Shown one piece after another: positions 5,613-63,770 of a stretch of 64,000 nucleotides of DNA. A program made the translations under genes and the position numbers. Every line of letters starts with the position of its first letter. Position 1 is the stretch's first letter. This DNA is from a virus. The notes beneath the pieces are model-generated. The model was not told the DNA's origin, made no database searches, and saw nothing but the letters and a program-made list of their open reading frames with translations. The stretch lies in the IMG/VR virus record IMGVR_UViG_3300005805_009577, positions 64,001 to 128,000 of that record. The stretch is one strand, 5' to 3'.

Positions 5613-6104
5613 TTGATCTATATATCTGGTATGTCTTATAAAGAAATAGAAATTATTAAGAATATAGAAAAAAAATCATACCCGCAATTTATGTGGCAAT
5701 ATGACGAGGCAGAAAGTCTAGATGATATATACGCCATAGTTAATAAAGATAAAAAAGAAGGCAAGCTTTTTTGTCATGTAGAGGAAAGTTGGTATCTGGT
5801 GGGGGTTGACAGAAAAGATGAAATAGCCATTTCCGATTTAGCCAGCACTAAAAATTTAGGTTTTTCAGAAATGAATCTCATGCTCAGTTTTATTAAAAAA
5901 TTAGGAAATAAAAAAGTAATAGCTGACTGTAGAGATTTGACAAGTTATAACCTTTTAAAACTTTTAGAACAAAGAGGTACAATAAAAATTATTAGCGAAA
6001 GCCCTTGGATTTGGGGCAATGAAAAAATGTATGAATTGACTTTTTCTATAAAGCCAAAAGGTTTTAGTGACTGGCTCAGATATACAGAATCAAAAAATGA
6101 ATAA
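5613..6104 (+). CDS. hypothetical protein
   Basis: 163-aa ORF; C-terminal GFSDWLRYTE resembles the leader motif found at N-termini elsewhere. Confidence 0.55.
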   Translation: MIYISGMSYKEIEIIKNIEKKSYPQFMWQYDEAESLDDIYAIVNKDKKEGKLFCHVEESWYLVGVDRKDEIAISDLASTKNLGFSEMNLMLSFIKKLGNKKVIADCRDLTSYNLLKLLEQRGTIKIISESPWIWGNEKMYELTFSIKPKGFSDWLRYTESKNE

Positions 6105-6110
6105 TAAATA
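6103..6110 (+). promoter_or_regulatory. T4-type late-promoter-like element (AATAAATA, 5 nt before ATG)
   Basis: Same element and 5-nt spacing at 8429, 43591, 60401 and 63521. Confidence 0.5.
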
Positions 6111-6115
6111 CTTTT

Positions 6116-7636
6116 ATGTCTATTAACTTCTATCAATTTCATAAACTTTTGAGTGAGTATGGCCAAAATCTAGTTCAAGACTTAATACAAAAGTTTCAAA
6201 AAGAAGATGCCGCCCTCACACCAGAAATAATAAAAATTTATATCGACAAATTTGAAAAAATAAAAAATACTCTTGCCGAAAAAGATATAAACAAATATTC
6301 TTGGAAAGAGCTAGAATCAACAATCGATAGCAGACAACCTAAGCAAAGAATAAAAGCAGGTAAATTAGATCCAACAGTAATAGACGCAAATCTTTTATAC
6401 AATAAAGATGGAATAAGAATCTATATTGGCAAAGATAAAAAAAGCTGTATTAGATATAGCAATGGATACAACTTTTGTATTGGTGCTAGAGGCGAAGATA
6501 GTATGTATAATTATTATAGAATAGGCAAAAAAGGATTGCCTTATTTTATATTTAATGATAATTTGCCACCCAGAGATGATAGACACTTATTAGTATTGTT
6601 TGTTTATGACAACTACGCTTTGCCCATTCCAACAAAATATAGATACTCCCTAACAAGAGCTAATAATGAAGGTGAAGATAACTATGAAAAGTTAATAGAG
6701 ATAATAAGAGACTATCCTTGGGTTTCCCCTATAGGACAATTTGTTGATGATAACAAAAAAGGAACCCTAGAGCCTGATCCTTTTGAGATCATAGAATATA
6801 CTTTTTACAACGCTTTGACTAATAAAAAAAGATTGCTAGAGAGTTCTTATTCTGGTCTAGGAAAGCCCTGGTCAACAATTAAATTTGGCGTACCTTACGA
6901 TGGTAAGTTAGAACATTTTGAAAAACGAGGACTTAGAAATCTTTTTATATCACTTAAAGAATTAATTTTTAATAAAGATCCATTGACTATCAATAATTTT
7001 ATAGAACAAAAAGATAATCAGAAAATTGCTTTTATAAGAATATATGAATCTAATAAAGATAATTCAATCTTTTCCTGGCCCAGAATGTTTTGTGTTTTTT
7101 GTAAAAATTCTGATGAGCTTTTGAAAGAAATTAGAAGAATAGCAAAGAATATAATAAAAGAGCCAAGCATTCATGGTGGTGAGTGGCCTAACGTTATTTC
7201 TAATTTGCAACCCAGCAAAAAAAATATAGAATCTTTGCTTGAGCCAATAGAAAAAAGCAAAAATAAGATATATGAATTATTAAGTAAAAATAAAGAATTA
7301 AGAGACAACATACCTGTTTTTATAAGTTATCAAGACAATAAGCCAGATTTTAGAGATGCAATAATGATGCCTTATTTTTTAGTTCAAATAAATGATATTA
7401 GAGAAATAGCATTGGACGTTATAGGACACAATAAAGAAATAGTAGAAGACTTGAATAATATTAAAACTAAATATAATAAGTATTTAGAATTAATAAAAAG
7501 CTTAAATAAAGAGCAGCAAAGCTTATTATTAGAAAAAATAGAAAGAATTGGAAAAGAAAACAAAGTAACTATTAATCAATTAAATTTCCCAATAACTATT
7601 ATTTTTGAGGCAGTAGAAGAATTTTTTAATTTATAA
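6116..7636 (+). CDS. large hypothetical protein, candidate virion-internal protein
   Basis: Leader MSINFYQFHKLLSE; CIRYSNGYNFCIG segment resembles CKYGKxTDWCTA of 38101 and 60414. Confidence 0.65.
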   Translation: MSINFYQFHKLLSEYGQNLVQDLIQKFQKEDAALTPEIIKIYIDKFEKIKNTLAEKDINKYSWKELESTIDSRQPKQRIKAGKLDPTVIDANLLYNKDGIRIYIGKDKKSCIRYSNGYNFCIGARGEDSMYNYYRIGKKGLPYFIFNDNLPPRDDRHLLVLFVYDNYALPIPTKYRYSLTRANNEGEDNYEKLIEIIRDYPWVSPIGQFVDDNKKGTLEPDPFEIIEYTFYNALTNKKRLLESSYSGLGKPWSTIKFGVPYDGKLEHFEKRGLRNLFISLKELIFNKDPLTINNFIEQKDNQKIAFIRIYESNKDNSIFSWPRMFCVFCKNSDELLKEIRRIAKNIIKEPSIHGGEWPNVISNLQPSKKNIESLLEPIEKSKNKIYELLSKNKELRDNIPVFISYQDNKPDFRDAIMMPYFLVQINDIREIALDVIGHNKEIVEDLNNIKTKYNKYLELIKSLNKEQQSLLLEKIERIGKENKVTINQLNFPITIIFEAVEEFFNL

Positions 7637-8396
7637 TAGGCCTAAATAATTTTGTTCTTTTATTATTTTGCCTTTCTACATATCTCGAATAATCGTAGGC
7701 CCAGTGTGGTTTTAATTTATATCTTCCAAATATCTTATTATCATTTTTTACATAATCTTCGGCCTTTTTTGATAAATTAGTTTTCAATGATATTGCATGA
7801 TAACTATTATTGTTTAATCTATAAATATAAAACATATTATCTAAGTTTATTTTTTCGCTATTATATTTTTCTTGTTTAAAAAATTTGTTAATTGTTAATT
7901 GATCTAATTCCAAGTCATCTGTTTCTAAATACCCTCCTGCCTGTTTAAAAGCAGATTTGTATATTGCCAAATTTGAGTGAAAAAGAGGAAATATTCCCCA
8001 ATACTTTAACGCACTAATTATTTTTGTTTTTTCCACCTCCACATAGCCCATTCTTGTATGAAATATATTTTTTTTATTTTCAAACATTTTGTTTATTGTA
8101 TAGCTAATCCTATGCGGCAGATATATATCATCATCCTCCCAGGCAAATAATATTTCCCCAGAACACAAATCAATCGTATTATTAAATTTTTCTCCTAAAA
8201 GATGAATTTTCTTTTTTAGATTAAAAACCTTTACTTCTGGGTGGTCAATATATAATTCGTGGTAAGGGCAATCATTTAATATTATAAGTTCTTTTTCACC
8301 CTTATAGTCTTGTCTTATAAAACTTTCTATTGCTTCCTCTAGTATTCTTGGGCGACCATAAGTTGCACAGTAAGCACTAACTTTCGGGAAATACAT
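7626..8396 (-). CDS. glycosyltransferase family 2 (GT-A)
   Basis: CATYGRPRILEEAIESFIRQDY, ELIILND, WEDDDIYLPHRI motifs. Confidence 0.9.
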   Translation of the reverse strand: MYFPKVSAYCATYGRPRILEEAIESFIRQDYKGEKELIILNDCPYHELYIDHPEVKVFNLKKKIHLLGEKFNNTIDLCSGEILFAWEDDDIYLPHRISYTINKMFENKKNIFHTRMGYVEVEKTKIISALKYWGIFPLFHSNLAIYKSAFKQAGGYLETDDLELDQLTINKFFKQEKYNSEKINLDNMFYIYRLNNNSYHAISLKTNLSKKAEDYVKNDNKIFGRYKLKPHWAYDYSRYVERQNNKRTKLFRPIIN

Positions 8397-8428
8397 AAAC
8401 TAATTATAGAAAAAAATACAGCTTTGTT

Positions 8429-8436
8429 TATAAATA
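8429..8436 (+). promoter_or_regulatory. T4-type late promoter consensus TATAAATA
   Basis: Exact TATAAATA 5 nt before ATG 8442. Confidence 0.6.
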
Positions 8437-8441
8437 TCTTT

Positions 8442-8708
8442 ATGAAAACATTTCAAGAATATATAAATTTAAACGAAGCAAACAATAGCAAAAAAGAGTC
8501 TAAAAAAGACAAAGATGAAACAAATAAGATTGACTGTGTTATGGATCTAGCCAAGGCCATACAAGACGTATTTAAAGATTATAGTCTAAACACAAGAAAA
8601 GAGGCTTGGAAGAGAATTAATTCTACCAAAGCTAAAGATTTGTTTCAAAAATTACTAGTAACTCCTAGCAAGTCTTTAAGTCCTTTTAAGAGCATAGCGG
8701 ATAAATAA
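8442..8708 (+). CDS. small protein with T4 internal-protein-like leader
   Basis: MKTFQEYINLNE versus T4 IPII/IPIII MKTYQEFIAE; start moved from 8424 to 8442. Confidence 0.7.
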   Translation: MKTFQEYINLNEANNSKKESKKDKDETNKIDCVMDLAKAIQDVFKDYSLNTRKEAWKRINSTKAKDLFQKLLVTPSKSLSPFKSIADK

Positions 8709-8953
8709 AATGAAAAGAAAAGCTATTTCTTTATTGATTATAACATTTGCTTTTTTTATTGGTTATTTTTTAGGTTTAGTGTTTTAAATTTAATAATAAA
8801 TAAAAACCGTGGCGGGGTACGTAAAAATTCCGGGATTATTTACTCATTAAATAATCCCGGTTAACCAAAGGAGTAAGTGATTGTCTCCGAATCACTTTGT
8901 AGACTTATCTTTTTAGTGCTACAAAATAGTAAAGTATAAAATTTATTATTTTT

Positions 8954-9310
8954 ATGAGAATAATTGAATCAAAAATGATTGAAGCCATTAAAAATAAGAA
9001 AAATTATAATGGCGGAAATACAAAAGTTATAACAAAAAAGAACAAATCTTTTGTTTATTTGTTTAATAATTTAATAGCCGAGATAACAGATAAAAAAGTA
9101 AGAATTAATAATTGTGGCTATAAAACAAAAACTACAAAAAGTAGATTGAATGCAATTTTAAACGAATTTGTCGGAGATAGACAAATTTACCAAAAGGATT
9201 TTAATTGGTATATTAGCGGAGAAATTTTAGAGGGATATTATTCTTGCGATTTCCCAAGTGGTTGGGTAGAATTTACAAATAAATTTATTTTAAACACTTT
9301 TAAAGCTTAA
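8954..9310 (+). CDS. conserved phage hypothetical protein
   Basis: MRIIESKMIEAI...TTKSRLNAIL...IYQKDFNWY. Confidence 0.65.
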   Translation: MRIIESKMIEAIKNKKNYNGGNTKVITKKNKSFVYLFNNLIAEITDKKVRINNCGYKTKTTKSRLNAILNEFVGDRQIYQKDFNWYISGEILEGYYSCDFPSGWVEFTNKFILNTFKA

Positions 9311-9311
9311 A

Positions 9312-9842
9312 ATGAACGTACTTGATAAATATAAAGAGTATGGTTGGAATGTAGATTTAATTAAGCAAGATATAGAAAAAAATACATTCCCTTATGCTGT
9401 CCTTATGGAAAATTTTAGAGGGGATTTCACTATAGGAAGTGTTTTAAGAAGCTGTAATGCTTTAGGCGGCAAGGAGATGTACTACTATGGCAGAAAAAAG
9501 TACGACAGAAGGGCTACTGTTGGTACTTATCATTATACGAGCATGATAAATATTAAAGATTTGGAAGGACTAATAAGTCTTAAAAGCAAGTATAAGTTTG
9601 TTGCTTTAGAAAACAATATTGAAAACACTATTCCTATTTATGATTATGAATGGAGTGAAAACTCTTTGATAGTCGTTGGAGAAGAGGGAACAGGTATCTC
9701 CAAGGAAGTTCTTGAAATTTGTGACGATTTCATTCATATTCCACAATACGGTAGTGTGAGAAGCATGAATGCCGCCGTTGCTGCAAGTATAGCAATGAAT
9801 GATTACGTTGGAAAATATTTAAGGAAAAAAAGTGAATACTGA
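9312..9842 (+). CDS. TrmH/SpoU family RNA 2'-O-methyltransferase
   Basis: SPOUT motifs: IGSVLRSCNALG, VVGEEGTGIS, IHIPQYGSVRSMNAAVAASIAM. Confidence 0.93.
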   Translation: MNVLDKYKEYGWNVDLIKQDIEKNTFPYAVLMENFRGDFTIGSVLRSCNALGGKEMYYYGRKKYDRRATVGTYHYTSMINIKDLEGLISLKSKYKFVALENNIENTIPIYDYEWSENSLIVVGEEGTGISKEVLEICDDFIHIPQYGSVRSMNAAVAASIAMNDYVGKYLRKKSEY

Positions 9843-21947: not shown

Positions 21948-23282
21948 ATGGCTACTATTAAATCTTTTAAAAAAGGCAAAAAACAAGCAAAGATTGAATT
22001 GAATGGATTTACTATAAACGAATTAATAAACGTATTACAACAAGAAAAAAAGAAGAAAAAAGAAAAAGCTAAAATTACTATTTATGATAATTTACAAAGC
22101 ATATACGAATCAGAAGATAAAAAAGCGATAGTTTTTTCTTTTGAAAATGGAAACAAGTTTAAATTTAATTTACCCGACAGCAGATTTTATCATGCACATA
22201 GTAACAAATTAATTAATTCTAATAATTTTGATATAAAATGTTACGATTTAAGTTCTGCAGAAATGTCTAATTTATCTACAGAAACTTGGATTAAAACTTT
22301 TTTTAACTTGATAGAAAATCTTGCTCCTTACGGAAGAAGACAATTATTAGATATAATAGATGCTTCTTTTTCTAAAAGGAAAGTCGATAAAGATATTCTT
22401 TTTTTATGGGAACAAGCAAGCAAACAAGAGTTTGTACAGAAACTAAATAAAGATCAGATAAGTCTTTTAGCCGAGATTATAAGCGATAATGATGATTACT
22501 CTATACTTAGAGAAATTATAAAAAATAAAAAAGATTATTGTTGGCTTTTTGAAAACTACTCACGCAGAAATGTTAATATTGACAGACACGACGGAACAAT
22601 TTTGTTTTTCTTTAATATCGCAAAAAGACTTGGTTGTTTGGAGCATTTAAAATATGCTTTCGACAACTATAGGTATGTGTTTAGCCATGAAGATTGGGAA
22701 ATTATTAAATATCTCTTGAAGAATGGCTATGAAGCAACAAGGCTATTAACTTATATCTGTCGAGATATGCCCAATCAAGGAATAGATTATTATAATCATG
22801 ATAATGATGAGTGTTGTTTGCATATACTGCGTGATTATGTAAGAATGAACATTCAAATGAAAAATGATTTTGAAAAATATCCAAGATATCTTAGAACTTA
22901 TCATGATGTAACTGTTAAGAATTACAATATAGCAAAAAATAAGTCTTTTAATACAAGAATGAAAAGAGTTGCCAAGAGCTTAGAAAAATATCATTACCAA
23001 AATGATGTTTATTCTATTGTTGCTCCAAAGTCTGCTGAAGATTTGATAGAAGAAGGCATAAGGCTTAACCATTGCGTAGCAAGCTATATAGAAGATGTCG
23101 CAAATAAAGAAACAGCGATATTATTTCTTAGAAAAAATAGTGATTTGAAAAGTTCTTTAGTTACCATGGAAATAAAAAATAATAGAATAGTTCAAGCAAA
23201 AGGTAAAAATAACTCTAATCCACAGCCTGAAGAAAAAAGGTTTATAGATGATTATAAGAAGTATTTGGCCAATATAAAATGA
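21948..23282 (+). CDS. PcfJ-like domain protein (paralog A)
   Basis: YPRYLRTYHD, IVAPKSAEDLIEEGIRLNHCVASY, ILFLRK, SLVTMEI, VQAKGKNN. Confidence 0.8.
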   Translation: MATIKSFKKGKKQAKIELNGFTINELINVLQQEKKKKKEKAKITIYDNLQSIYESEDKKAIVFSFENGNKFKFNLPDSRFYHAHSNKLINSNNFDIKCYDLSSAEMSNLSTETWIKTFFNLIENLAPYGRRQLLDIIDASFSKRKVDKDILFLWEQASKQEFVQKLNKDQISLLAEIISDNDDYSILREIIKNKKDYCWLFENYSRRNVNIDRHDGTILFFFNIAKRLGCLEHLKYAFDNYRYVFSHEDWEIIKYLLKNGYEATRLLTYICRDMPNQGIDYYNHDNDECCLHILRDYVRMNIQMKNDFEKYPRYLRTYHDVTVKNYNIAKNKSFNTRMKRVAKSLEKYHYQNDVYSIVAPKSAEDLIEEGIRLNHCVASYIEDVANKETAILFLRKNSDLKSSLVTMEIKNNRIVQAKGKNNSNPQPEEKRFIDDYKKYLANIK

Positions 23283-31002: not shown

Positions 31003-31047
31003 ATTAAAATTTTTTAATAATTTAATATATAAGTAGTGGAGAAAATT

Positions 31048-31407
31048 ATGAATTTTAACAAATTAAATAAAATAATTTCCGAAGACAAAACGTGGAAATT
31101 AGAAGAAGAAATGGCACCTAGCCTTCCAATGAATGGCCAAACGAACAGTCAGATAAATAATCCTGCCCAAGATATACGGGGCAATCTAAATATTCAAATG
31201 CTGACCAAATATCTTCCTAGCCAAGATCCTGTAAAGCTGAAGATTGCCATTTCTAATGTTATGAAGGGTAGCAGGCTGAACAACATACAGTTGATGTCTC
31301 TTGGAAATGCTTTTATTGATTTGTTAAAAGCCAATACCCAAGAAACTATGAAGGTCATGAATTTACTAAAAAGAGTTTCTATGGAAAATGATGGAGGACA
31401 AAATTAA
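31048..31407 (+). CDS. hypothetical protein with leader MNFNKLNKIISE
   Basis: Leader similarity to other candidate internal proteins; start moved to 31048. Confidence 0.55.
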   Translation: MNFNKLNKIISEDKTWKLEEEMAPSLPMNGQTNSQINNPAQDIRGNLNIQMLTKYLPSQDPVKLKIAISNVMKGSRLNNIQLMSLGNAFIDLLKANTQETMKVMNLLKRVSMENDGGQN

Positions 31408-31408: not shown

Positions 31409-31573
31409 ATGAAAAAGTTTAATGATTGGATGAAAGAAAAAGCTTTGGGAATGAAAAAAGAACATCCACATAAAATAGAGGAACCAGGAACAGTGAAAGA
31501 TGTTCAAGTTAAGCCTGGCACTGTGGACGGCGATAAGTCAAAGCCAGTTAAAAAAGACAAAGAAAGTCTTTAA
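31409..31573 (+). CDS. small basic protein with leader MKKFNDWMKE
   Basis: GGAGG RBS upstream of 31409. Confidence 0.55.
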   Translation: MKKFNDWMKEKALGMKKEHPHKIEEPGTVKDVQVKPGTVDGDKSKPVKKDKESL

Positions 31574-32982: not shown

Positions 32983-33519
32983 ATGAAAAATGAATTTTGG
33001 TCTACTGCTAATTTTAAAAGATTGAAAAATGCACTATGGCAATTATACTGGGATGATTTTTTAATCCCTGCCTTTACCCATCGGGGCAAGGGATTTTCAG
33101 CTTCAGCCTCAGCAAGATCAGATTTTAAACATGAAGACATAGCTGCTGGTTCTTTGGCATTTGCAAACTGGAAAAAATATAAAGAAAAAAATAATATAAA
33201 GCCATCCAAGCCAAAAGTAAGAATCGAGGCTATTTATTACCCAAACAGCATAAGTGTAACTGCTGACGAGTATCGAAGTGTGGAAGAAGAGTATTACAAT
33301 AGCCAAGATGACGTTGTTGTAATACAAAATCCTCTTTATGCTTCTTTATGCACCTTGCGTGGAGTATCTAATAAATATGCAGCCAATGAATTTTTTAATC
33401 CAAATTCAACATGGGCTGAAAATGCTATCTCCACTGATTTAAATGAAAAATATATAGAAATACCAGAAAAATTTGCTAGACAGATTTTGGTTTTAAAAAG
33501 TTTTAAAATTAAGATTTGA
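32983..33519 (+). CDS. hypothetical protein, IPxKLA C-terminal family
   Basis: Ends IEIPEKFARQILVLKSFKIKI; FW...F.RL N-terminal segment shared with 32259. Confidence 0.6.
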   Translation: MKNEFWSTANFKRLKNALWQLYWDDFLIPAFTHRGKGFSASASARSDFKHEDIAAGSLAFANWKKYKEKNNIKPSKPKVRIEAIYYPNSISVTADEYRSVEEEYYNSQDDVVVIQNPLYASLCTLRGVSNKYAANEFFNPNSTWAENAISTDLNEKYIEIPEKFARQILVLKSFKIKI

Positions 33520-33860
33520 ATAATAAAAATTATATAATATAATAAACATTATGGAACAAATAATTACATTGCAAATTAGTAGAAAAGACGACACCCCAGC
33601 AAACGAATATAATTGGGCCGAACTTTTAAAATTAAATGAAGACGAAAGTGTCACGGTCATAGATCATTGGATGATTAGAGGCACTTTGCCTCCTTCTTCC
33701 GAATGCCAGAATAAATGCAAAAAAGACGAAGGTTTTGTCTCCCAAAAAACCCAGATAATAAAATGCAAAAAAGAAGGCTGTAGTTTTAAATGCAAAAAAC
33801 TACATGGGGAAAGTGACTCTTAATAAATATATGCTAAATTAAAAGACTTAATTACAAAAT

Positions 33861-33875
33861 CCTTTTTTGAGTACG
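33861..33875 (+). promoter_or_regulatory. T-run-GTACG motif copy
   Basis: ccttttttgaGTACG followed by hairpin ccggtc-gtgt-ggccgg. Confidence 0.65.
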
Positions 33876-33937
33876 TCTTAGGATTGTAGCCGGTCGTGTG
33901 GCCGGAAGGATTATAACTCTTGATAATGAGGTGATTT

Positions 33938-34177
33938 ATGGCTCGTGTTGATGCTATGTCTTTTGTGGATGCGTGGGTTAAGATTTATGAGCAGGGTGGC
34001 TCGCAGAGTGATGTTGCTCGTGAAATTGGCACTTCGGCCGCCAATGTTTCTACTCGTGCTAAGAAGTTGCGTGAGGCCGGAGTTGATCTGCCTGAACTCA
34101 AGGTTACTCGTACTGGCACTACGATTGACGTTGATTCGCTTAACGAGCGTCTTTCGGCTCGACTTGCGAAGGCTTGA
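33938..34177 (+). CDS. HTH-type DNA-binding protein (family member 2)
   Basis: SQSDVAREIGTSAANVSTRAKKLREAGVDLPEL; GAGGTG RBS. Confidence 0.75.
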   Translation: MARVDAMSFVDAWVKIYEQGGSQSDVAREIGTSAANVSTRAKKLREAGVDLPELKVTRTGTTIDVDSLNERLSARLAKA

Positions 34178-34206
34178 ACTTAAAGGGTGTAAATTTCACC
34201 CGTCCA

Positions 34207-34243
34207 CAACCCTGGGTTTTAAAAACCCAGGGTTGTTTTTTTT
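34207..34243 (+). terminator. intrinsic terminator
   Basis: caaccctgggtttt/aaaacccagggttg stem plus T-run. Confidence 0.85.
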
Positions 34244-34590
34244 ATAAACATCAAACATATGAATAATCTACTAGAAAAATTTGCCAAAGTTAAAAAAATA
34301 TCTATATTTGGGAAAAGGTGGTTTCAAAAAACATATGGAAACACTTACCATAGTTCCGAAATATATGTGAACGATAAACTTGTTCATAAAATAGAATTTT
34401 GCTATGGCTATGGAAGTCAATATGAATGGAATTCATTTACCTGGTTGAAGCAAAATGGTTATATTAAATTGTCAGAAAAAGATAAGCATTATTGCTTAGG
34501 TCGTTACTGCAGAGAAAATAATATAGAGCTTTGCAACGATGTTGTTGACGTAAACAGAAAAAAAGATCTTTAAAAGATTTAAGTGACGAG

Positions 34591-34606
34591 TCCTTTTTTG
34601 GGTACG
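34591..34606 (+). promoter_or_regulatory. T-run-GTACG motif copy
   Basis: tccttttttggGTACG upstream of 34644 (AGGAG RBS). Confidence 0.65.
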
Positions 34607-35999
34607 CCCTCTCTTTACGCAGATGGTTTACTAGGAGACAAATATGTTTAAAGCCGCTCCGGTGATATTTTTATCATTATCTTTAATTGGAAATATTGAA
34701 GGTATAAAAGAAAATAACATCAACCAAGTTAATAATGTTAATAAAAAAACTATTAAATTTTTAAATAAAAAGGCTACTTTTAAGCAACATTTAAAGGACA
34801 TAGAAAATCAATTCAACATATCTATTAAAATTGACAAACAGTCCCTTCAAAAACATGGCATTTCAATTAATCAAAGCATAGTGATTGAAGAAAAAGAATA
34901 TACATTTTCTGAATCACTGGATTTATTGACTACAAAAATTTGTATTTTTAATCGACAAAAAGTTGTTTTTTGGTCTATTGACGAAGTTAACAACGTAATG
35001 ATTTTTGGCAAATAATCAAGGAGGTTAAATTGGCTATTATTCAGTTGGTAGTTAGTACCTTGGGATTGCTTTGGTTTATTTTTGGCGATAACAGTATAGC
35101 AATTAAAAGAATGACGCCTATAAAGCAAACAAATTTGCAAATAGGAGTTATAAAACAGCCAATTCAAAATCAAAAAGCAGGAGTTCAGTGGATATACAGA
35201 GGAAGAGACAACTACTATTACTATTACAGTGATATTTCTAACACTTATTTATGCAGAGTAAATATAGTTACTGGTGCGGTTGACTATAAAATTTAGTCTT
35301 TAGTTTTATTGGCCAGCCTAATAAATGCATATGCTATAGAAAGTTCTATAAACATTATAATTGGCCAGCAAACTAATATTGGGTAAATTTGTTGCATTGT
35401 ACAATAATATAGTGATCTGACTTAAATTTTTATAGGTGTAAAATGAATAAAATTGTTTACGGAAAAGTTAGCGGAACAGGCGAATTTCCACTTGATATGC
35501 TTAGGTATGATGTTTGTTCTCCTGCTACAGAACAAGATAGTTATTTAATTTCACGCACATTTAATCTTGAATCAAGGTGTCGTGGTGTTTGGGAAATTTA
35601 TGTAAAAAGAATTCTTTTAGAGCATAAAAAAGGAATGAACACCTTCACTTATGATAGGTGGCGGAGTTTCGGCTGTAGAGTGGAAGAGACTAAGGATGGA
35701 ATTCACGGCCAACGTCAAGGAAACTTATTTTAAGGAAAAATAAATGTTTTTTGCACCAGATCATCATGCTAATATAAAGATAATGAAGTGGGTTGAATCG
35801 GCCATGCAAAGTGCCATGATAATTCAGTATGAAGTTTCAATGGGCAAAATTAATAAATGTCATTTTCAAACAATGATAAACAGCGTTTCTTACAATGTGA
35901 CCAAAGAAATTATTAAAGAAAAGACTCTATTAAGGTGCGAACCCAGCGTTAATTAGCACACAGGCTTGAAAAATTTTCACAATCTTCTATAATATTTTT

Positions 36000-38076: not shown

Positions 38077-38100
38077 ATTTAAATTAAACTATATAATTTT

Positions 38101-39924
38101 ATGCTATTTAAAGACTGGCTCGTAATAAATGAAAATATAGAAAGTAATTTTGATTCTTGGGTTAGAAGTATACAAAAATATTCAAAACCATCTGAAGTTA
38201 TTCTGCTAAAATCTTTAGGAATATACGTTCCAGAAGATGAAAAATATCCTGGGCGAGGAGATATAGCGAACGAGTTTAATATAAGACTAAAAACTTTTAA
38301 AGAAATAATAATTAAAGTTCTTAAAAAGAAGAATCTAGAAAACTTAAATTGGTTGGCGTTTAGTGTAGGCTACTTAGTAGTCAAGACATTTCACGAAGAA
38401 GATTTGGAGCTAGCGATTGAAGTAACTAAACAAAGAATTGCCAGCGGGGAATTGCCAAAGTCAGAAATAGGATCTAAAGGATGGATGCAAATTGGAAATG
38501 AAGCTTTAGAACATGTTCAAGAGTACTTAAGACAACAACAGGAAATAAGCAATAGACAAAAAGAAAAATTGAAAAAATTAGGTGGAACTTTAGAAGAAGA
38601 TGAAAGTAAAGATTTAATACAATTGGTGGCCAAAGAAGTTTATGTAAAAGGAACTGTACGGGACGAATTAAAGTTATATAAACTTCCATCTTTAAATATA
38701 CACCCAGATTCAGTTGAACAGGCATATTCGCTGATAGCGGGAGTAATCTTGTCAAAGATAATCGCATCCCCAAAGTCTAAGATAGAATCTAGAAAAAGGT
38801 TGTTGTGTAAATACGGAAAAGGCACAGATTGGTGTACTGCAAATCCTTCTGGTGATTATGATCGATATTATATGAATAATGACATTTTTATAATGCATGA
38901 AAATAATCATCCTAAATATCAGTTTACTTCTTGTATAGACGATGGAAGAGCCGGTAGTGGCGGCAAACAATTTATGGATCCTTTAGATAGAAATGTTAGC
39001 AAAATAAAGTTAGAAGAAAAAGAGTTTTTAGAAAAGCACGCTTTAAAAGAAACCGAATGTTATATCCCTGGATTTAAAATAATTTTTTCAAGCTTAGAAA
39101 GTTATCTAAGCTCCGATGAAGATATTAAGAGAAAAATAGATCCAAAAAGTATAGTTGACTTGGTGAAAGATAAAAATTTTAAAAACGCTACAAAAAAACA
39201 ATTTATAGAACTTATATTAAACATCAACATAGACGACATACCTTCAAATGTTTTTAAGAGTTTTTTAAGAAATCTACCCGATAACTTTAATATTGACGCT
39301 TTAAATGATAAAAAAATATTTAATTCTATAGTTAAACTTCAATATGTGGACTATGAAGATTTAGATAAAAAAATAAGCAAAGAAAGACTAGAAAAGTTTT
39401 TAAACAACTATAAAAATGATTTATTTGACGATGAAATAAATCCTAAATACGAACAGGAAGTTCAGAATTCAAGAAAATCAACTATAAGAAATTTATTAAT
39501 TGCAGGGCACAGTTTAGAGTCAATGTTAAGTATATTATCTTTTTTAGTTAAAAAAATTAGCATAGGACCGGCAGAAGCCTATACCATATTCGATACAGTT
39601 ATAAGTCAAATACAAAGTGCTTTTTCTCAAAATTTAATATCGACTCCTACTGCCTTAAATTCTTTGGATTTATTTGCAAAAATTTTAGGCAAAGAAAATA
39701 TCAATAAAATTGATTTGAATAGATTTCAAGAAAGAATGAAAGTAAAACTAATACCAGAAGGAAATAAATTTAGAATAGATAAAACAGAAGATATAGGTGC
39801 AAAAAGAATCACTAAAAGTAGATTGTTGGCTTTGGGTTCTGCTAAAGATTTGATGATAAGGTTTTTAGAAAAACATGATGATAGAATAATTACTTCCTGG
39901 GAAGCAGAGTGGGATAAACAATAG
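38101..39924 (+). CDS. large candidate virion-internal protein (CKYG-WCTAN family, paralog A)
   Basis: Leader MLFKDWLVINE; N-terminal half clearly homologous to 60414..62021. Confidence 0.7.
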   Translation: MLFKDWLVINENIESNFDSWVRSIQKYSKPSEVILLKSLGIYVPEDEKYPGRGDIANEFNIRLKTFKEIIIKVLKKKNLENLNWLAFSVGYLVVKTFHEEDLELAIEVTKQRIASGELPKSEIGSKGWMQIGNEALEHVQEYLRQQQEISNRQKEKLKKLGGTLEEDESKDLIQLVAKEVYVKGTVRDELKLYKLPSLNIHPDSVEQAYSLIAGVILSKIIASPKSKIESRKRLLCKYGKGTDWCTANPSGDYDRYYMNNDIFIMHENNHPKYQFTSCIDDGRAGSGGKQFMDPLDRNVSKIKLEEKEFLEKHALKETECYIPGFKIIFSSLESYLSSDEDIKRKIDPKSIVDLVKDKNFKNATKKQFIELILNINIDDIPSNVFKSFLRNLPDNFNIDALNDKKIFNSIVKLQYVDYEDLDKKISKERLEKFLNNYKNDLFDDEINPKYEQEVQNSRKSTIRNLLIAGHSLESMLSILSFLVKKISIGPAEAYTIFDTVISQIQSAFSQNLISTPTALNSLDLFAKILGKENINKIDLNRFQERMKVKLIPEGNKFRIDKTEDIGAKRITKSRLLALGSAKDLMIRFLEKHDDRIITSWEAEWDKQ

Positions 39925-40519: not shown

Positions 40520-41308
40520 ATGGAAAGTTTTAAACAATTTTTAAAATCTAAAAAAGCAATTGTTTATCACGTTAGCCCTAATTCTTCTATAAAAAAATTA
40601 AGGCCAACTGGTTCTCATAAGGGCCAACAAAGCATTAAAATGGGACGTGGCGGCATATATGTTGCCCCAAAGTTTAAAGATGCTGTTGCTTGGGCTACAT
40701 CTTATGTTGGCGGCAAAAAATATCATACTCAAAAACCAAATGATAGACTTAAAGAGCGAGAGTCTGGTGGTGGTTGGCACGGAGACAAAGGTCCAAAAAA
40801 TTACAAAAATCTCACTATTTACGAACTAGAAGTTCCGGAAGAATTGTTAAAAAATTCTTGGAGTAATTCTTTCTGGGAACCAGAGTATTTCATTTCTGCA
40901 GAATACATGAATCATATTAAAGTAATTAAATCTACCACGTATTCTCTTGATGAATTAATGGTGCTAGACAGGGTGAACAGTCAAAAAAGAATGGAATTGA
41001 TATCTTCTAAAGAATTAATAGAAATAAAAAGAGCAAGCAAGACAAACCAGGCTGCTCGTTACTATTTGGAACTTTTAGATTCTTATAATCAGCACTTATT
41101 AAAAGGTAAAAACCCAATAATAAATCAAGATTCAGATATTAAAAATGATCATGTAATAAGACAAAAGACAGAAAAACTAAAAGACTATATATTTTATAGT
41201 GATAATAATTGGACTAGCTTAAAAATAATAGAAAAATTAAATAAAGATCAAAAAAGAGAAGCAGAACAAATATACCAAGATGTTAAGAAGTTAATACAAA
41301 GTCTTTAG
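40520..41308 (+). CDS. putative ADP-ribosyltransferase-fold protein with internal-protein-like leader
   Basis: IVYHVS...GGIYVA...AVAWA...IYELEV...PEYFI pattern of H-Y-E ARTs; leader MESFKQFL. Confidence 0.55.
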   Translation: MESFKQFLKSKKAIVYHVSPNSSIKKLRPTGSHKGQQSIKMGRGGIYVAPKFKDAVAWATSYVGGKKYHTQKPNDRLKERESGGGWHGDKGPKNYKNLTIYELEVPEELLKNSWSNSFWEPEYFISAEYMNHIKVIKSTTYSLDELMVLDRVNSQKRMELISSKELIEIKRASKTNQAARYYLELLDSYNQHLLKGKNPIINQDSDIKNDHVIRQKTEKLKDYIFYSDNNWTSLKIIEKLNKDQKREAEQIYQDVKKLIQSL

Positions 41309-41373: not shown

Positions 41374-42789
41374 ATGCAAATTAAAGACGAAAACGGAAAA
41401 GTTATTGCAAGTATTGATCTTCAAGAAGGTTGCTCTATTTCCGACCTTTTAAAGAGTATTTCTTCTGGCAAGAAAGAAAAGAATTCTCTTAATACTCTCA
41501 AGGAAATTAAAGAAAGTGAAGACAAAAAGCAAATAGTTTTCAATTTTAACGATGGCTTTATATGTTATGATCTGCCTACAAAGACTTTTGTTAGGAAAAA
41601 TGGACTGAAAATTGGTGAAGGCTCCTTTAAGAGCATCAAGCTTAATCTTAAAAATAAGATTGTAACTCTAAATCATAGGGAAAGAGATACTTTCTGGCTT
41701 GAGTTAAAAGAAAAGACAGATGTTGTTTGGATTAAGACATTTTTTAGTCTTATAGACATATGGGCTAATAACAAGCATAAGCAAGGTCATTGGCAAAGTG
41801 TTAGAGATAGAAATGCCAAGAATAAAATTCAAGTCTTGACTAAAGACAAAAAGTTTTTTGACTCGCTAGAAGCATTTTCTAAGTTGACAAAAATTCAGTC
41901 TTTGAATGAAGACGATCTTAAGAGTCTTTATGATAATCTTCTTGAAATTAGCAACAAAGAAAATAAAGAAGACAAAAGTGCTCTAGGTTACAGCGTGAGA
42001 ATAAGTCCAAAAAGCACTATAGATAAATGGTTCATTGAAAGGTGTGACAAAGCTGTATCAGAAAACTATTCTAATGGCGAATCCTTAATTAATCACATGG
42101 GCGATTACATCAAGTGTAGTACGCATAAGGTAAAAGACTTATTTCAGTATGTATTTGAAGAGTACAATGGAGTGATTGCTTTTAAGCAAATAGAAAAAAT
42201 CAAGAAGTTAATTGGTTTTGGCTATGAGCCTAAAAGGTTGATGGACTATCTTTATAGAGACATTTATAATCAGGGCTTAGAATTAGATTTAGAAACTAGG
42301 TGGCATAATTCTGATTGTGCACTTTCTATGCTCTGTGATTATGCAAGCATGAATCAAGATATGAATCTAGTATATGAAAAGTATCCTAGGTATCTTTCTA
42401 CGTATCATGACGTTACGCAAAAGAATTATAAGATTGAAGAAGATAAAATAATTAAAGAAAAATTTCATAAAAGGGTTCTAGGGTTAAAAGAACAAGGATT
42501 AGAATATTCTGATAAGGAGTATTCTATTGTTCTTCCAAAGAATGGCGAAGAATTAGTTATCGAAGGACAAGATCTAAGTCATTGCGTTGCTAGTTACTAT
42601 AAACGAATGGCTTGTGGCGAAACTGCTGTCGTGTTTCTTAGAAAGAATAGCAGTATCAATCAAAGCCTTGTAACCATAGAAATTAAAGATAATGACATAG
42701 TACAAGCAAAAGGTAAAAACAACTCTAATCCGCAAGAAAAAGAAATAGAATTCATCAACAAGTATAAAAATTATTTACTAAAAAAGTAA
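41374..42789 (+). CDS. PcfJ-like domain protein (paralog B)
   Basis: YPRYLSTYHD, IVLPKNGEELVIEGQDLSHCVASY, VFLRK, SLVTIEI, VQAKGKNN. Confidence 0.8.
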   Translation: MQIKDENGKVIASIDLQEGCSISDLLKSISSGKKEKNSLNTLKEIKESEDKKQIVFNFNDGFICYDLPTKTFVRKNGLKIGEGSFKSIKLNLKNKIVTLNHRERDTFWLELKEKTDVVWIKTFFSLIDIWANNKHKQGHWQSVRDRNAKNKIQVLTKDKKFFDSLEAFSKLTKIQSLNEDDLKSLYDNLLEISNKENKEDKSALGYSVRISPKSTIDKWFIERCDKAVSENYSNGESLINHMGDYIKCSTHKVKDLFQYVFEEYNGVIAFKQIEKIKKLIGFGYEPKRLMDYLYRDIYNQGLELDLETRWHNSDCALSMLCDYASMNQDMNLVYEKYPRYLSTYHDVTQKNYKIEEDKIIKEKFHKRVLGLKEQGLEYSDKEYSIVLPKNGEELVIEGQDLSHCVASYYKRMACGETAVVFLRKNSSINQSLVTIEIKDNDIVQAKGKNNSNPQEKEIEFINKYKNYLLKK

Positions 42790-48699: not shown

Positions 48700-48933
48700 A
48701 TGAAATTTTCTTTATGGTTGGAAAAAAGAGTTAGAAATCAAAAAACCCAAACTAAAATGCCTAGAGTTAAAAACGGCACAGAAAGAGTTGTATCTGATGC
48801 TAACATGAGAATAAGCCAAATGGTCGGCCATGGTCAATATAAAACACATGGTAAGGCCGGAAAAATGAATTATAAAAAAGATAAAGGTTCTAGATCAGAA
48901 AAAAATAGACTAGCAATAACAGACCAGCAATAA
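48700..48933 (+). CDS. small basic protein with leader MKFSLWLE
   Basis: GAGGA RBS; K/R-rich. Confidence 0.65.
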   Translation: MKFSLWLEKRVRNQKTQTKMPRVKNGTERVVSDANMRISQMVGHGQYKTHGKAGKMNYKKDKGSRSEKNRLAITDQQ

Positions 48934-48946: not shown

Positions 48947-49246
48947 ATGAAAACATTTTACGAGTGGTTAATGATTGAGCAAAAAGAATTTTTATTATTT
49001 GAAGATGGTCAAAAAAAATTGTATAGAGAAGTGGTGTCAAAACTAAGAAAAGCAGGATTTGAATTTGTAAGAGTGGCAAATGATGCACACGACGTATGGA
49101 TAAAAGACGGAACTGAAGTGAATGTATTGAGAAATGTTAGAGGAAATCCAAATATAATATTTAATCAGACAATAAGAGCTTGGGAAAACACCAAAACAAG
49201 AAATCAAGAGTTAAAAAATAAAAGAGAAAAAGTTGCTTCTAAGTAG
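48947..49246 (+). CDS. HicA-like (dsRBD-fold) protein with leader MKTFYEWLMIE
   Basis: YREVVSKLRKAGFEFVRVANDAHDVWIKDGTEVNV resembles HicA R-E-V..L...GF...R..GSH..W. Confidence 0.5.
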   Translation: MKTFYEWLMIEQKEFLLFEDGQKKLYREVVSKLRKAGFEFVRVANDAHDVWIKDGTEVNVLRNVRGNPNIIFNQTIRAWENTKTRNQELKNKREKVASK

Positions 49247-60191: not shown

Positions 60192-60413
60192 AGCATTTAT
60201 GAAAGTCAATATTAAAGAAGAACTAGAAAAATTAGATAGGAATGATTTTAATAAAGTTTGCAACTTAGTTGACAAAATAATAAAAGACATTAAAGAAGTT
60301 ACTAGAGATGCAGATATGGGCAATGAAATTATTTTTGATATGGTCATAGACTATATGATCGAATTAATAAATCCAGAATTATTAAAATTTTAGTAAAATT
60401 GATAAATAAATTT

Positions 60414-62021
60414 ATGCCACTTAACTTTTACGAATTATATAACTTACTAAACGAAAATGTAGAAGAAAGCTTTGATAAGTGGCTAGAACTTGTATTTCAA
60501 TACACCAAAAAAAATACAGATGCCGAAAAAGTTTTAATGAAAATATCAGGAGTTCCTGTAAGAGCAGATCTTATAGGAAAAAATGCCAAAGATTGGCAGG
60601 ATTCAGAAAAAGCACAACTAAAATACATTATAGATGGACCACAAGAAGTATACATTAAACAAGTATTAAAAGAAAAAAACATTGAAAACTTTAATTGGTT
60701 TAGCTTTTGTATAGGTTATTTCAGCACAAAACCAAGCTTCTTTAAAGAAGATTTAGAATTAGCAATAGAAGTAACAAAAAATAGAATAGCCAGCAGAGAA
60801 CTTCCTAAAACTGAAATAGGGGGTAAAGGCTGGCTGCTGATTGGTTATGAATCTTTGGATCATGTTAAAAAGTATTTAAGACAACAGCAAGAACTTAGTA
60901 ATAGACAAAAACTAAAACTAAGAAAAAAGGGAGAAACACTAGAAGAAGACGAAAGTTTAATAAAATTATTAGATCAGAAAAATAACTTTAAACTTTATTT
61001 TTTACCCAGTATAGCAACTGATAAAGATAATAAATATCATGATAGTTGGAGTGCTGCTGAATACGTAAACAAAAGAGAAAGTAGAAAAAGATTACTGTGT
61101 AAATACGGAAAAGATACAGATTGGTGTACTGCTAATCCTACAGGCGGATATCATGAGTATTACGTTGATCAAGATATTTATATTTTACATGAAAATGATA
61201 AGCCAAAATATCAATTTACCGGGTGTCATAGAGGAATAAGACCTCAATTTATGAATGTTAAAGACGAAACAGTAGAAGCAATTTCTCAAAAAGAAATGGA
61301 ATTTTTATATTATCATCTTGGAAAATGTTATGAAGACATGGAAGTAAAATTAGAAGATCCAGAACAATATTTAAATTCAGAATTTAAAGAAAGAATAAGC
61401 TTAGAAGATATATTGGATTTGTGTCAAAATAAAGAAGCTTCTCCCGAAGTTTTAAAAGACATATATTCTCGTCATTCAAGAAAAGATTATAGAGGATCGG
61501 GATCGTGGAGCGGATTTGGGGGTATACTAGATTTATTATGTAAAAATCCTAACACACCAGAAGAAATATTAGTAGATATATATAAAAAAGATATTCCTCT
61601 GCCAGGGGGAACTAAAAAATCACTTGCAGAAAATCCTAGTACGCCAAAAGAAATATTAAAAGAAATATCTGAATTTATTCTAGATCCTGGGTCTGGCAAG
61701 AGCAAAAGATTATATACAGATATAGCAAATCCTTTGGCTAAAAACAAAAATTCAGACATTGAAGTTCTAAAAAATCTTCTTACATTCTTAAAAAGAGTAG
61801 ACAATAGAGATTATAAGGCTCGTTTTGGAGTAGATATATTAAAAAACCCAAACTCAAAAAAAGATCCGGAACTTGTAGAAGAAATAGTAAAAATAGTAAG
61901 AGGAATAATACTTGATCAAGAAACCTATGATTTTACTTTAACCTATTTAAGACAACAAGAAGATTTGCCAAGTGATTTATCCTCAGCCTTGTTGTTTGCA
62001 AGAAAAACTTCTTGGCGTTAA
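60414..62021 (+). CDS. large candidate virion-internal protein (CKYG-WCTAN family, paralog B) with LRV-like C-terminal repeats
   Basis: GATAAATA-N5-ATG; leader MPLNFYELYNLLNE; repeats NPNTPEEIL, ENPSTPKEIL, KNKNSDIEVL. Confidence 0.7.
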   Translation: MPLNFYELYNLLNENVEESFDKWLELVFQYTKKNTDAEKVLMKISGVPVRADLIGKNAKDWQDSEKAQLKYIIDGPQEVYIKQVLKEKNIENFNWFSFCIGYFSTKPSFFKEDLELAIEVTKNRIASRELPKTEIGGKGWLLIGYESLDHVKKYLRQQQELSNRQKLKLRKKGETLEEDESLIKLLDQKNNFKLYFLPSIATDKDNKYHDSWSAAEYVNKRESRKRLLCKYGKDTDWCTANPTGGYHEYYVDQDIYILHENDKPKYQFTGCHRGIRPQFMNVKDETVEAISQKEMEFLYYHLGKCYEDMEVKLEDPEQYLNSEFKERISLEDILDLCQNKEASPEVLKDIYSRHSRKDYRGSGSWSGFGGILDLLCKNPNTPEEILVDIYKKDIPLPGGTKKSLAENPSTPKEILKEISEFILDPGSGKSKRLYTDIANPLAKNKNSDIEVLKNLLTFLKRVDNRDYKARFGVDILKNPNSKKDPELVEEIVKIVRGIILDQETYDFTLTYLRQQEDLPSDLSSALLFARKTSWR

Positions 62022-62586
62022 TTATTTCATAGCACTCTAATGCGTTTATTGAAACATTTTAAAAAGCTAAATTAAAAATTATTCACGGTACGCTCAAGAT
62101 TTGTAGGGTAGCGGTGTAAATTTAAGAATTAAGTTATAATCTCAGCAAATAAAATCAGAACAGTTTTGTGGAACAAATTATGATCATTAAGTATTTTAAA
62201 ATTGATGTAAGTTTGAAAGAAATTAATTCTTATTTAAAAAAAGAATTAAAGTTATATTGCTTTAGAGATTTTCTAGAATTAATGATAAACGAATTAACAG
62301 AATTATATGAACTTTATAACTATAGTGAAGGCTTTGGAGAAAATTGGGTTTTTTCAGTAGCAGAAGGTGCAGATGTAATAAAAATAGAAATTCCCGATAA
62401 TAGTTTTACCAAATTTAAAAGCCACGATGCAGCAGTAAGAAAGTTTTTAGACTTATTGAAAGAAGAAGGAATTTACGAAGGATCATTAGACGGCACAAAT
62501 AGCACAGATAAGATGGGTTATGATTGGAACTATAAAATATTAGACGGAATAGAGTCTTTGTATTTAATAAGAAAAGAAAATAGATC

Positions 62587-63294
62587 ATGATCACAGACAC
62601 CAGAACTAAAAATCAAGATCTTCCAGATTATTTTTATTTAAAAATAATATTAGACTTTGAGACTTTAAGAAAAGAAGTAATAAAGTGTAAATTTAAAGGC
62701 AACAAAGAGTATAAAAGAAAAAGAAAAAATTATTGGCCCAGCCATCCAGAAAAAATATACAAGAATAAAGAATGGAAAGGTTGGTGCCATTTTTTAGGCA
62801 AAGAAGAACGTAAAAAATGGCCAAATTTTGAAAGCTTGAGAAAAGAAGTAAAATTAAAATTTAAAAATAAAAGAGATTATTTAAAAAACAGAAAAAAGAA
62901 TTGGCCAGGATGTCCGCAAATTGTTTACAAACAATGGAAAGGCTGGGAATATTTTCTAGGATATCATAAATTGAGTTTTGAAGAATGCAGAAAAGAAGTA
63001 ATAAAGTGTAAATTTAAAGGAAACAAAGAGTATAAAAGAAAAAGAAAGAAAAACTGGGCGGGTAATCCAGAGGTATTTTATGCTAAAGAATGGAAAGGTT
63101 GGTGCCATTTTTTAGGCAAAGAAGAACGTTTTAAACAATGGCCAGATTTTGAAAGCTTGAGAAAAGAAGTAATAAAACTTAAACTTAAAAGTATAGAACA
63201 ATACAAAGAAAAAAGAAAAAAGAATTGGCCTTATTGTCCGAACAGAACTTATAAAAAAAGCTGGAAAGGCTGGGAAGATTTTTTAGGCAAATAA
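62587..63294 (+). CDS. phage-integrase-repeat-type tandem repeat protein (no catalytic integrase domain)
   Basis: Four units ending W..(H/C/N)P...Y...WKGW..FLG; internal DNA duplication with about 318-321 nt offset. Confidence 0.75.
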   Translation: MITDTRTKNQDLPDYFYLKIILDFETLRKEVIKCKFKGNKEYKRKRKNYWPSHPEKIYKNKEWKGWCHFLGKEERKKWPNFESLRKEVKLKFKNKRDYLKNRKKNWPGCPQIVYKQWKGWEYFLGYHKLSFEECRKEVIKCKFKGNKEYKRKRKKNWAGNPEVFYAKEWKGWCHFLGKEERFKQWPDFESLRKEVIKLKLKSIEQYKEKRKKNWPYCPNRTYKKSWKGWEDFLGK

Positions 63295-63296
63295 TC

Positions 63297-63494
63297 ATGA
63301 ATAACAAAGATTTTTTAAAAAGCTTTTCAGAATCATGTGAATTTTGTAATGAAAAAATAAAATATGTAAATAAAACTAAGTTTGTATGCAAACTTAATAA
63401 AGATTTTATATTAGATTTTAAACATGAAAGTGAATGCAAAAGACCATTTTACGGCACTTGTCTTTATAAGCCGCCGCCTATTTTTTCTAAATAG
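63297..63494 (+). CDS. small Cys-rich protein
   Basis: MNNKDFLKSF..SCEFC resembles 20524 MNNKDLLNNF...CSKC. Confidence 0.55.
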   Translation: MNNKDFLKSFSESCEFCNEKIKYVNKTKFVCKLNKDFILDFKHESECKRPFYGTCLYKPPPIFSK

Positions 63495-63533
63495 TCGGCA
63501 AATAAAAACGTAACAGTTTTTATAAATAACCTT

Positions 63534-63770
63534 ATGCCGCTTAACTTTTACGAATTATACCACTTACTAAATGAAAATACAGTAAGCCAAGAGCTTAAAA
63601 GCTTAAAAAAGAACTTCCCAAGGCTAAGCGGAGATATAATAGAAGCTAAAAAAGAAATGGCAAATGATCCAAACATAGTAAAAAACGTTAATGGAAATAA
63701 AATTAATGACCTTGCAAACTATGTAATAAGCCAAAGATTAGAAAGACAACATCTCGACCAGAATAATTAG
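63534..63770 (+). CDS. small protein with leader MPLNFYELYHLLNE
   Basis: TATAAATA (63521-63528)-N5-ATG; leader nearly identical to that of 60414. Confidence 0.7.
   Translation: MPLNFYELYHLLNENTVSQELKSLKKNFPRLSGDIIEAKKEMANDPNIVKNVNGNKINDLANYVISQRLERQHLDQNN

Follow-up and report, generated by a model that had tools for sequence, protein, structure and literature searches.

Candidate T4-type capsid-targeting leaders on diverse proteins of an uncultured T4-related phage

Introduction

The three internal proteins of phage T4 are the textbook case of proteins injected along with phage DNA, and IPI* is an anti-restriction factor. IPI, IPII and IPIII, and likewise the Alt propeptide, bear a capsid-targeting sequence (CTS) that is removed by the prohead protease gp21 (Mullaney & Black 1996, as outlined in the reviews PMC9026906, PMC3012670 and PMC5694885). 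Here we describe ten genes, c1 to c10, whose products begin with a short leader resembling the T4 CTS. They lie in a window of 64,000 nucleotides, bases 64001–128000 of a 181,145-base IMG/VR viral contig called G000. An earlier note on this DNA had listed the ten N-termini with their positions, and all ten are present there. The clade of G000 comprises G001 (187 kb), G006 (87 kb), G007 (251 kb) and G008 (323 kb, still incomplete).

Mutational work on the T4 CTS assigns residues 4 and 7 to targeting and residues 8 and 10 to processing, and the CTS-bearing internal proteins of T-even phages are described as basic (PMC9026906). They are also polymorphic (Repoila et al. 1994, as cited in PMC9026906 and PMC3012670). 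That one conserved CTS can head varied internal proteins has already been published for the T-even phages; Petrov 2010 contains no discussion of the CTS. In the phiKZ-like phages SPN3US, phiKZ and 201phi2-1, many head-internal proteins are cut after Glu by a gp21-related protease, and SPN3US paralogs possess identical N-termini followed by a diverged remainder (PMC5694885). The T4 late promoter, TATAAATA at −13 to −6 with a first base that is variable in relatives, is read by gp55, gp33 and gp45 (PMC1524935). No report of the features named below as new was found in searches of the open-access literature.

Results

The leader and its agreement with the T4 CTS

In the T4 record both ipII and ipIII begin with MKTYQEFIAE, as the earlier note had said. 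Forty-four leaders of G000, G001 and G008, anchored on their first aromatic residue, give the logo M1 K2 [KNST]3 F4 [KN]5 [ED]6 W7 L8 ... E. Position 4 is Phe in 41 of the 44, and position 7 is Trp, Tyr or Phe in every one; the T4 residues are Y4 and F7. Judged by these residues, the leader covers exactly the T4 positions that are known to matter. Two classes can be distinguished. Class 1 is close to the T4 CTS and includes c2, c4, c5 and c8, with c6 and c7 as looser members. Class 2, M(xx)NF[YN]x[LF]xx[LI][LI][NS]E, includes c1, c3, c9 and c10. The classes overlap, and homolog forms such as MNFYQWLLLNE bridge both.

The leaders tend to end in a gp21-type site. The sequence [LIVM]-x-E, ending at residues 6–17, is present in 39 of 54 leaders versus about 20% of other genes, and the preferred cleavage-type site is L-N-E. 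Within the window, c1, c2, c3, c5, c8, c9 and c10 fit the L/I-x-E rule. The remark in the earlier note that most of its N-termini end in [ILM]-x-E thus holds for most window leaders, the departures being c6, which has no Glu, and c7, which ends in W-L-E. The leader site is the sole [LIV]NE in most of the large leader proteins. A polyprotein reading was rejected, as the window's large proteins have no internal [LIV]NE joints. Hydrophobic signal-peptide character is absent from the leader.

A hypothetical T4 protein of 54 residues, gp61.1 (T4 record L107:18966-19130, minus strand), starts with MKTFKEFIKE, close to the CTS of ipII and ipIII.

Enrichment of the leader at protein N-termini

To search for the leader we used [FYW]xx[FYW][LIVM]x(0-4)E with a start at residues 2–6, and took the expectation from internal positions of the same proteins. 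In G000, 11 genes match versus 2.1 expected (p 1e-5); after shuffling of the N-termini the mean is 1.9 matches, and only 1 of 230 rejected open reading frames (ORFs) matches. Since the pattern was written after G000 had been seen, the fair tests are the relatives. G001 has 9 pattern genes versus 1.3 expected, G008 has 22 versus 1.8 (p 6e-17), and G006 has 11 among 109 genes versus 0.27 (p 1e-14). The motif is therefore commoner at N-termini than at internal positions, one of the points on which the earlier note had let its proposal stand or fall, with an enrichment of 5–40 fold across G000 and these three relatives. No N-terminal match occurs in G002–G004, which belong to a different T4-like lineage with a GC content similar to that of G000. 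In phage T4 itself 4 of 259 genes match, namely ipII, ipIII, gp61.1 and one likely chance match; ipI escapes the pattern because its residue 8 is Thr.

A position-specific scoring matrix (PSSM) trained on the leaders of G001 and G008 alone was applied to the 2,735 candidate starts of G000. Its 11 best-scoring starts include c5, c2, c8, c4, c7 and two further G000 genes that lie beyond the window, seven of eight class-1 genes. A leader-model scan of the contig, of the kind the earlier note had proposed, recovers window genes and adds members beyond them. Further leader genes lie at genome positions 4776, 149146, 149784 (minus strand) and 172978. Those at 4776, 149146 and 149784 keep the T4 leader spacing residue for residue, as c4 does.

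More leader genes are probably hidden by start calling, as at G008 205528, whose leader starts from an internal Met. In G008 the c2 ortholog at 286715-286930 (minus strand) apparently uses a TTG start; the first-ATG call shortens it to 60 residues and hides the leader. We also noticed a codon bias: in the first 13 codons of the 54 leader genes of G000, G001 and G008, AAC makes up 48% of the Asn codons and TAC 65% of the Tyr codons, compared with 27% and 25% in the remaining proteome.

Head genes of the related phages

G006, G007 and G008 each encode a Peptidase_S77 protein (the gp21 family, E about 1e-28) and Gp23 (E about 1e-90), along with leader-bearing homologs of c5 and c9. The gp21 of G008 aligns with T4 gp21 through the GELxHP, SSRG and DAV segments. 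In both G008 and G006, two small tandem leader genes stand divergent from a cluster that runs 595-residue ORF, gp21, gp22, gp23, and the second of the two is the c2 ortholog. In LR756511.1, a 595-kb uncultured huge phage, the sole gene of the c1 family encodes a 1,076-residue protein with a class-1-type leader and lies 3.4 kb from gp23. A tblastn search with T4 gp22, gp67, gp68, the internal proteins and Alt gave no matches in G000, G001 and G008.

The ORF of about 595–616 residues directly upstream of gp21 is itself conserved (G008 L103:7517-9301, G006 33070-34851, LR756511.1 526639-528489) and has no PHROG match. It was considered as the portal in G008 and rejected; T4 gp20 matches G008 at about 313 kb.

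The contig and its clade

G000 has about 30% GC (29–30% for the genome), carries nearly all its genes on one strand and contains rIIA, a rIIB-like gene, DNA and RNA ligases and many small genes. It has 81 genes in common with G001. Of its 339 genes, 94 have counterparts in G008, about 46% identical, but only 2–9 are shared with G002–G004. The deposited record closest to the G008 capsid gene is LR756511.1, whose gp23 is 75% identical; cultured phages reach 30–40% identity at best. No close relative of G000 was found among deposited phages in nucleotide and protein searches, where c5 had no match and c1 matched only LR756511.1. Most likely, G000 is a piece of a very large T4-related freshwater phage. 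The CheckV completeness of 78% is probably too high, because a clade relative is still incomplete at 323 kb, the closest genome on deposit is 595 kb long, and the 181-kb contig is without a structural module.

Promoter-like boxes upstream of the leader genes

The leader genes are associated with an upstream ATA[AT]ATA/TATAAATA box. Of 52 leader genes, 23 have TATATA in the 45 nt before the start, versus 88 of 1,064 others (p 3e-11). The distance of the box from the ATG shows a sharp peak at 4–5 nt, found in 18 of 53 leader genes versus 27 of 1,063 others, and 3 of these 27 are near-miss leaders. The arrangement in c1, c2, c9 and c10 is (T/A/G)ATAAATA, 5 nt and ATG, with no Shine-Dalgarno (SD) sequence. 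In G006 an exact TATAAATA also stands upstream of gp23, and the gp21 gene of G008 follows a similar box. The other promoter-like motif of the genome, GTACG, lies within 80 nt upstream of about 10% of the other genes (106 of 1,063) and of none of the 53 leader genes (estimated p about 0.005). These signals fit a late expression class, the timing being suggested by analogy with T4.

In T4, taken as a control, the boxes before gp22, gp24 and alt are about 25–30 nt upstream of the ATG. With a 5-nt spacer and the T4 promoter geometry, the transcript would start on the A of the ATG; leaderless late mRNAs are therefore predicted. We found no description of such mRNAs for T4-type phages in the open-access literature. 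Across G000, G001 and G008 as a whole, 45 genes have the box 4–5 nt from the ATG and no SD, 27 of them without the leader.

The ten leader genes of the window

All ten genes and their boxes are on the plus strand. The gene c1 (nt 6116–7636, 506 residues) follows a late-promoter-like box AATAAATA at nt 6103–6110, 5 nt before its ATG, with no SD. Its class-2 leader MSINFYQFHKLLSE precedes a conserved domain, and the leader is kept in 60 homologs with E14 invariant. The c2 gene (nt 8442–8708) lies 5 nt behind an exact TATAAATA box (nt 8429–8436), again without SD, and encodes a basic protein of 88 residues (isoelectric point, pI, 9.6) with the leader MKTFQEYINLNE and a PSSM score of 20.4. In the c2 family alignment the leader and a C-terminal domain of about 60 residues are conserved, with a Lys/Glu-rich linker of varying length between them.

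Genes c3 and c4 are in tandem. The 119-residue c3 (nt 31048–31407) has the class-2 leader MNFNKLNKIISE, a GGAG ribosome-binding site and a TATATAA box at nt 31026–31032, 15 nt upstream; the leader and next segment of G008 219756 resemble it. The Lys-rich c4 (nt 31409–31573, 54 residues) begins with MKKFNDWMKE and scores 11.2 in the PSSM. Its leader has exactly the T4 spacing, with aromatic residues at 4 and 7, an aliphatic residue at 8 and Glu at 10; the site is M-K-E. For c2, c3, c4 and c9 the plausible start is an internal ATG, with a GGAG-type ribosome-binding site for c3 and c4 and a TATAAATA-type box 5 nt upstream for c2 and c9.

The c5 gene (nt 38101–39924, 607 residues) is a paralog of c9. 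A TATATAA box at nt 38090–38096 ends 4 nt before its ATG, and no SD is present. The leader MLFKDWLVINE is followed by a second leader-like motif; the PSSM score of 24.4 is the top of the genome, and [LIV]NE occurs solely at residue 9. The c6 gene (nt 40520–41308, 262 residues) has the leader-like start MESFKQFL and a PSSM score of 6.2, and is a weak member because it lacks the Glu site. The next two products are small and basic: c7 (nt 48700–48933, 77 residues, pI 10.5) begins with MKFSLWLE and scores 10.0, and c8 (nt 48947–49246, 99 residues, pI 10.0) has the leader MKTFYEWLMIE and scores 11.3.

At nt 60401–60408 a GATAAATA box precedes the ATG of c9 by 5 nt, without SD. The c9 product (nt 60414–62021, 535 residues) has the class-2 leader MPLNFYELYNLLNE, followed by a conserved N-domain and, towards the C-terminus, by an ARM/HEAT-like helical repeat (residues about 313–535). 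Finally, an exact TATAAATA box at nt 63521–63528, 5 nt before the ATG and also without SD, precedes c10 (nt 63534–63770, 78 residues). The first 15 residues of c10 are identical to those of c9 at 14 of 15 positions, and the remainder is unrelated. At the DNA level the common stretch covers the box and spacer too.

Among other genes of the contig, three paralogs of 442–471 residues share a C-terminal domain (PHROG 3169/8470/7484); two are in the window (nt 21948–23282 and 41374–42789) and the third is at L001:11967-13295. The copy adjoining rIIA also matches the end of rIIB, and the phage thus has extra copies of a rIIB-like C-terminal domain.

Cargo proteins behind the leader

Pfam and PHROG searches with the ten window proteins returned nothing above threshold. 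Single-protein scans of IMG/VR gave no matches, and alignment-based searches were needed to recover homologs. After removal of the first 15 residues, the 54 leader proteins of G000, G001 and G008 fall into 44 cargo clusters. The description of the window proteins as unrelated holds for most of them, but not for c5 and c9, which are 46% identical over 360 residues, and perhaps not for c1. The c1 family aligns with the c5/c9 family at an hhalign probability of 31% (E 5e-4) and may be a distant relative of it. The sharing between c10 and c9 is limited to about 20 N-terminal residues, which c10 also shares with a 494-residue protein of G001.

A third copy of the c5/c9 gene is present at genome 20008-21033 (L002:8-1033, plus strand). 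It has no leader and starts exactly after the leader position, with stop codons just upstream. The leaderless paralog thus shows the leader to be a separable module. In AlphaFold2 models of c1 and c9 the leader is of low confidence and does not pack on the fold. The overall predicted local distance difference test (pLDDT) score is 78 for c1, with residues 1–15 below 50, and 81 for c9, whose leader is also below 50. The c1 model has no significant fold match in PDB or in BFVD (viral), and searches with the c9 model found none for its conserved N-domain. For the C-terminal repeat of c9, Foldseek probabilities are near 1 with E values of only about 1e-2; in VIA it gives Z about 10 over some 190–200 aligned residues at a root-mean-square deviation of about 4.5, values that are not decisive for helical repeats and may reflect a common arrangement.

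In each of the two large families, dozens of homologs were recovered from metagenomes, with several on one contig, and every one has the leader with its Glu unchanged. The large cargoes have 450–1,076 residues and occur in multiple copies per genome. A tandem array of seven large leader genes (c9, c1 and a third family) is found at G001 166709-184150. The small leader cargoes are basic, with a median pI of 9.2 versus 6.8 for other small proteins (p 7e-4).

The toxin-like domains that the earlier note had proposed among the cargoes were found only below threshold. The c8 protein scores 21.4 bits against HicA (PF07927), under the Pfam cut-off of 27, over residues 26–58 only, after a 25-residue extension, and no sequence-related solved structure was found for it. 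For c6, which has no Pfam or PHROG match, weak atlas leads point to PARP, Arr, DUF3990 and ART-PolyVal (score about 0.90, TM 0.34–0.37). An ADP-ribosyltransferase-like fold, which would echo the packaged Alt of T4, is a lead only. The gene at genome 4776 has an FMN-reductase-type domain from residue 21, and tagged proteins of the relatives include SNF2, CCA-adding-type, kinase and RNA-ligase-like domains.

Discussion

Several independent lines of evidence support the view that diverse cargoes bear a leader like the T4 CTS. We propose that the N-termini are capsid-targeting propeptides of the T4 type, on proteins that would be made late, packed into the head, cut by gp21 and injected, and we give this reading a probability of about 0.6. 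The match to T4, the gp21 and gp23 of the clade, the synteny of c2, the late boxes, the basic cargoes and the leaderless paralog all favor the interpretation that the earlier note had offered; c6 and c7 fit it poorly.

The pathway would be as follows. The leader genes would be transcribed late from T4-late-type promoters, in half of the window cases as mRNA without a 5′ leader. The first 10–14 residues, through the aromatic residues 4 and 7 and the aliphatic residue 8, could anchor the protein on the scaffolding core as the prohead assembles. A gp21-type prohead protease would then cut after the Glu of [L/I]-x-E, most often L-N-E. The mature cargo would remain in the head with the DNA and be injected at the next infection. 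Among the putative cargoes would be two large families, of which one has a variable ARM/HEAT-like tail, as well as small proteins of basic character and perhaps a few enzymes.

Several observations count against this proposal. The c6 leader is without a Glu site, and in c7 the Glu directly follows the Leu, an atypical site. No head gene or gp21 protease was found on G000 by family searches and by tblastn with T4 proteins, and the head protease and capsid genes of this phage are those predicted from its relatives. About two chance pattern matches are expected per genome; the genes at genome 55369 and 35975, whose orthologs lack the leader, are probable false matches. The leader on c1, c5 and c9 may be common partly by descent. 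The tagged SNF2 helicase, FMN-reductase-like and CCA-adding-type enzymes are not obviously suited to a capsid, and a few of the tagged enzyme domains in the relatives may be chance pattern matches. The genes that carry the box without the leader are mixed and not all structural, including a tail-like protein, a giant protein with RCC1 repeats and glycosyltransferases. A tblastn search of G000, G001 and G008 detected no homolog of T4 gp55, gp33 or gp45, and the late-promoter reading therefore relies on analogy.

An N-terminal tag kept across unrelated proteins would suit any system in which one partner serves many clients. The leader could thus be recognized by a modifying enzyme, a chaperone, a membrane or secretion route or a degradation machinery, and the enzymes among the tagged proteins would agree with this. 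Such a partner seems unlikely to us. Every position whose function has been mapped in the T4 CTS is matched by the tag, which closes with a site that follows the gp21 cleavage rule, the c2 orthologs and a c1-family gene adjoin head genes, and the leader does not look like a signal peptide. A radical-SAM partner (PF04055) was absent from the incomplete contigs G000, G001, G006 and G008, whereas 14 of 14 control genomes matched. Alternatively, the leaders might have no common function and reflect paralogy of c1, c5, c9 and c10, an AT-rich composition that favors K, N, F, L and E, and chance. The paralogy of c5 and c9, a possible kinship of c1, the low GC content and the loose [ILM]-x-E in 12% of all N-termini all speak for it. 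This explanation is largely refuted, and we consider it improbable. The enrichment holds against internal positions, against shuffled N-termini and against discarded ORFs of equal composition, the cargo clusters are unrelated, the leaders are kept in orthologs while linkers diverge, and G002–G004 lack the motif despite their similar GC.

The proximity of the box to the ATG in a third of the leader genes, together with the sharing of box, spacer and leader between c9 and c10 in their DNA, raises another question, whether the N-terminal codons act as a nucleic-acid signal, either in the initially transcribed region or for translation of leaderless mRNA. However, synonymous codons vary freely in the leaders, with TTT and TTC for Phe at 50:19, all six Leu codons in use and AAT and AAC for Asn at 46:43; therefore the constraint acts on the peptide. 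The same peptide motif occurs with an ordinary SD and longer 5′ regions in c3, c4, c8 and G008 294104, and the 27 genes with the same box geometry do without the peptide. A nucleic-acid signal is thus, by a shade, the least probable of the explanations. Returning to the capsid-targeting propeptide, a wider proposal can be made more tentatively, and we hold it somewhat less probable than not: a clade of huge (>320 kb) T4-related freshwater phages would use the CTS as a general address label on dozens of genes per genome and inject a large, fast-changing arsenal. Multi-copy families of 450–1,076 residues with variable ARM/HEAT-like tails would belong to it, and possibly enzyme or toxin-like domains. 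The promoter box, 5 nt, ATG and leader would form a portable unit that gives leaderless late mRNAs, and cargoes would be swapped by recombination at the leader.

If the tag marks packaged proteins, the injected proteome of uncultured T4-like phages becomes readable from sequence. That of this clade would then be ten times that of T4 and include the big multi-copy families, which would be candidate counter-defence or takeover factors of the first minute. Leaderless late mRNAs, as predicted here, would add something new to late gene expression of the T4 type, and the leaders are candidate new packaging tags for T4-based protein delivery vectors.

Comparison with known systems

The phiKZ-like propeptides resemble the clade leaders in processing after Glu and, in SPN3US, in N-termini kept among paralogs. 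They differ in that they are mostly longer than 100 residues, are cut at A/S/G-x-E and have no aromatic 4/7 core, and the phages are not of the T4 type in gp23 or gene order. As to the late promoter of T4, the octamer is the same, the first position tolerates the same A, and the box stands upstream of leader genes and of G006 gp23. In the clade, however, it is often only 5 nt from the ATG, and gp55 and gp33 homologs were not found on the available contigs.

The polymorphic internal proteins of T-even phages likewise have a conserved leader before exchangeable, fast-evolving cargo genes. They occupy a few loci in close T4 relatives, whereas the genes here are scattered genome-wide in a distant clade of huge phages. 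The leader and upstream box that c9 and c10 share, with nothing else in common, fit an exchange at the leader.

The T4 CTS is a close match. It has the same leader of 10–14 residues with aromatic residues at 4 and 7, an aliphatic residue at 8 and a terminal Glu of L/I-x-E, it is placed on unrelated cargoes, many of the small ones basic, and a gp21 protease and gp23 of the T4 type exist in this clade. The scale differs: 9–23 tagged genes per partial genome (10% of the G006 genes) versus 3–4 in T4. The clade also has two leader classes (MKxFxEWL... and MNFYxLYxLLNE), known here from sequence alone, with L-N-E preferred, multi-copy cargoes of 450–1,076 residues, and a late-type box fused to the start codon in many genes. 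The new elements are the number of tagged genes, the existence of two leader classes with L-N-E, the large multi-copy cargo families, the occurrence of the system in a huge uncultured T4-related clade, and a late-type promoter that is fused to the start codon.

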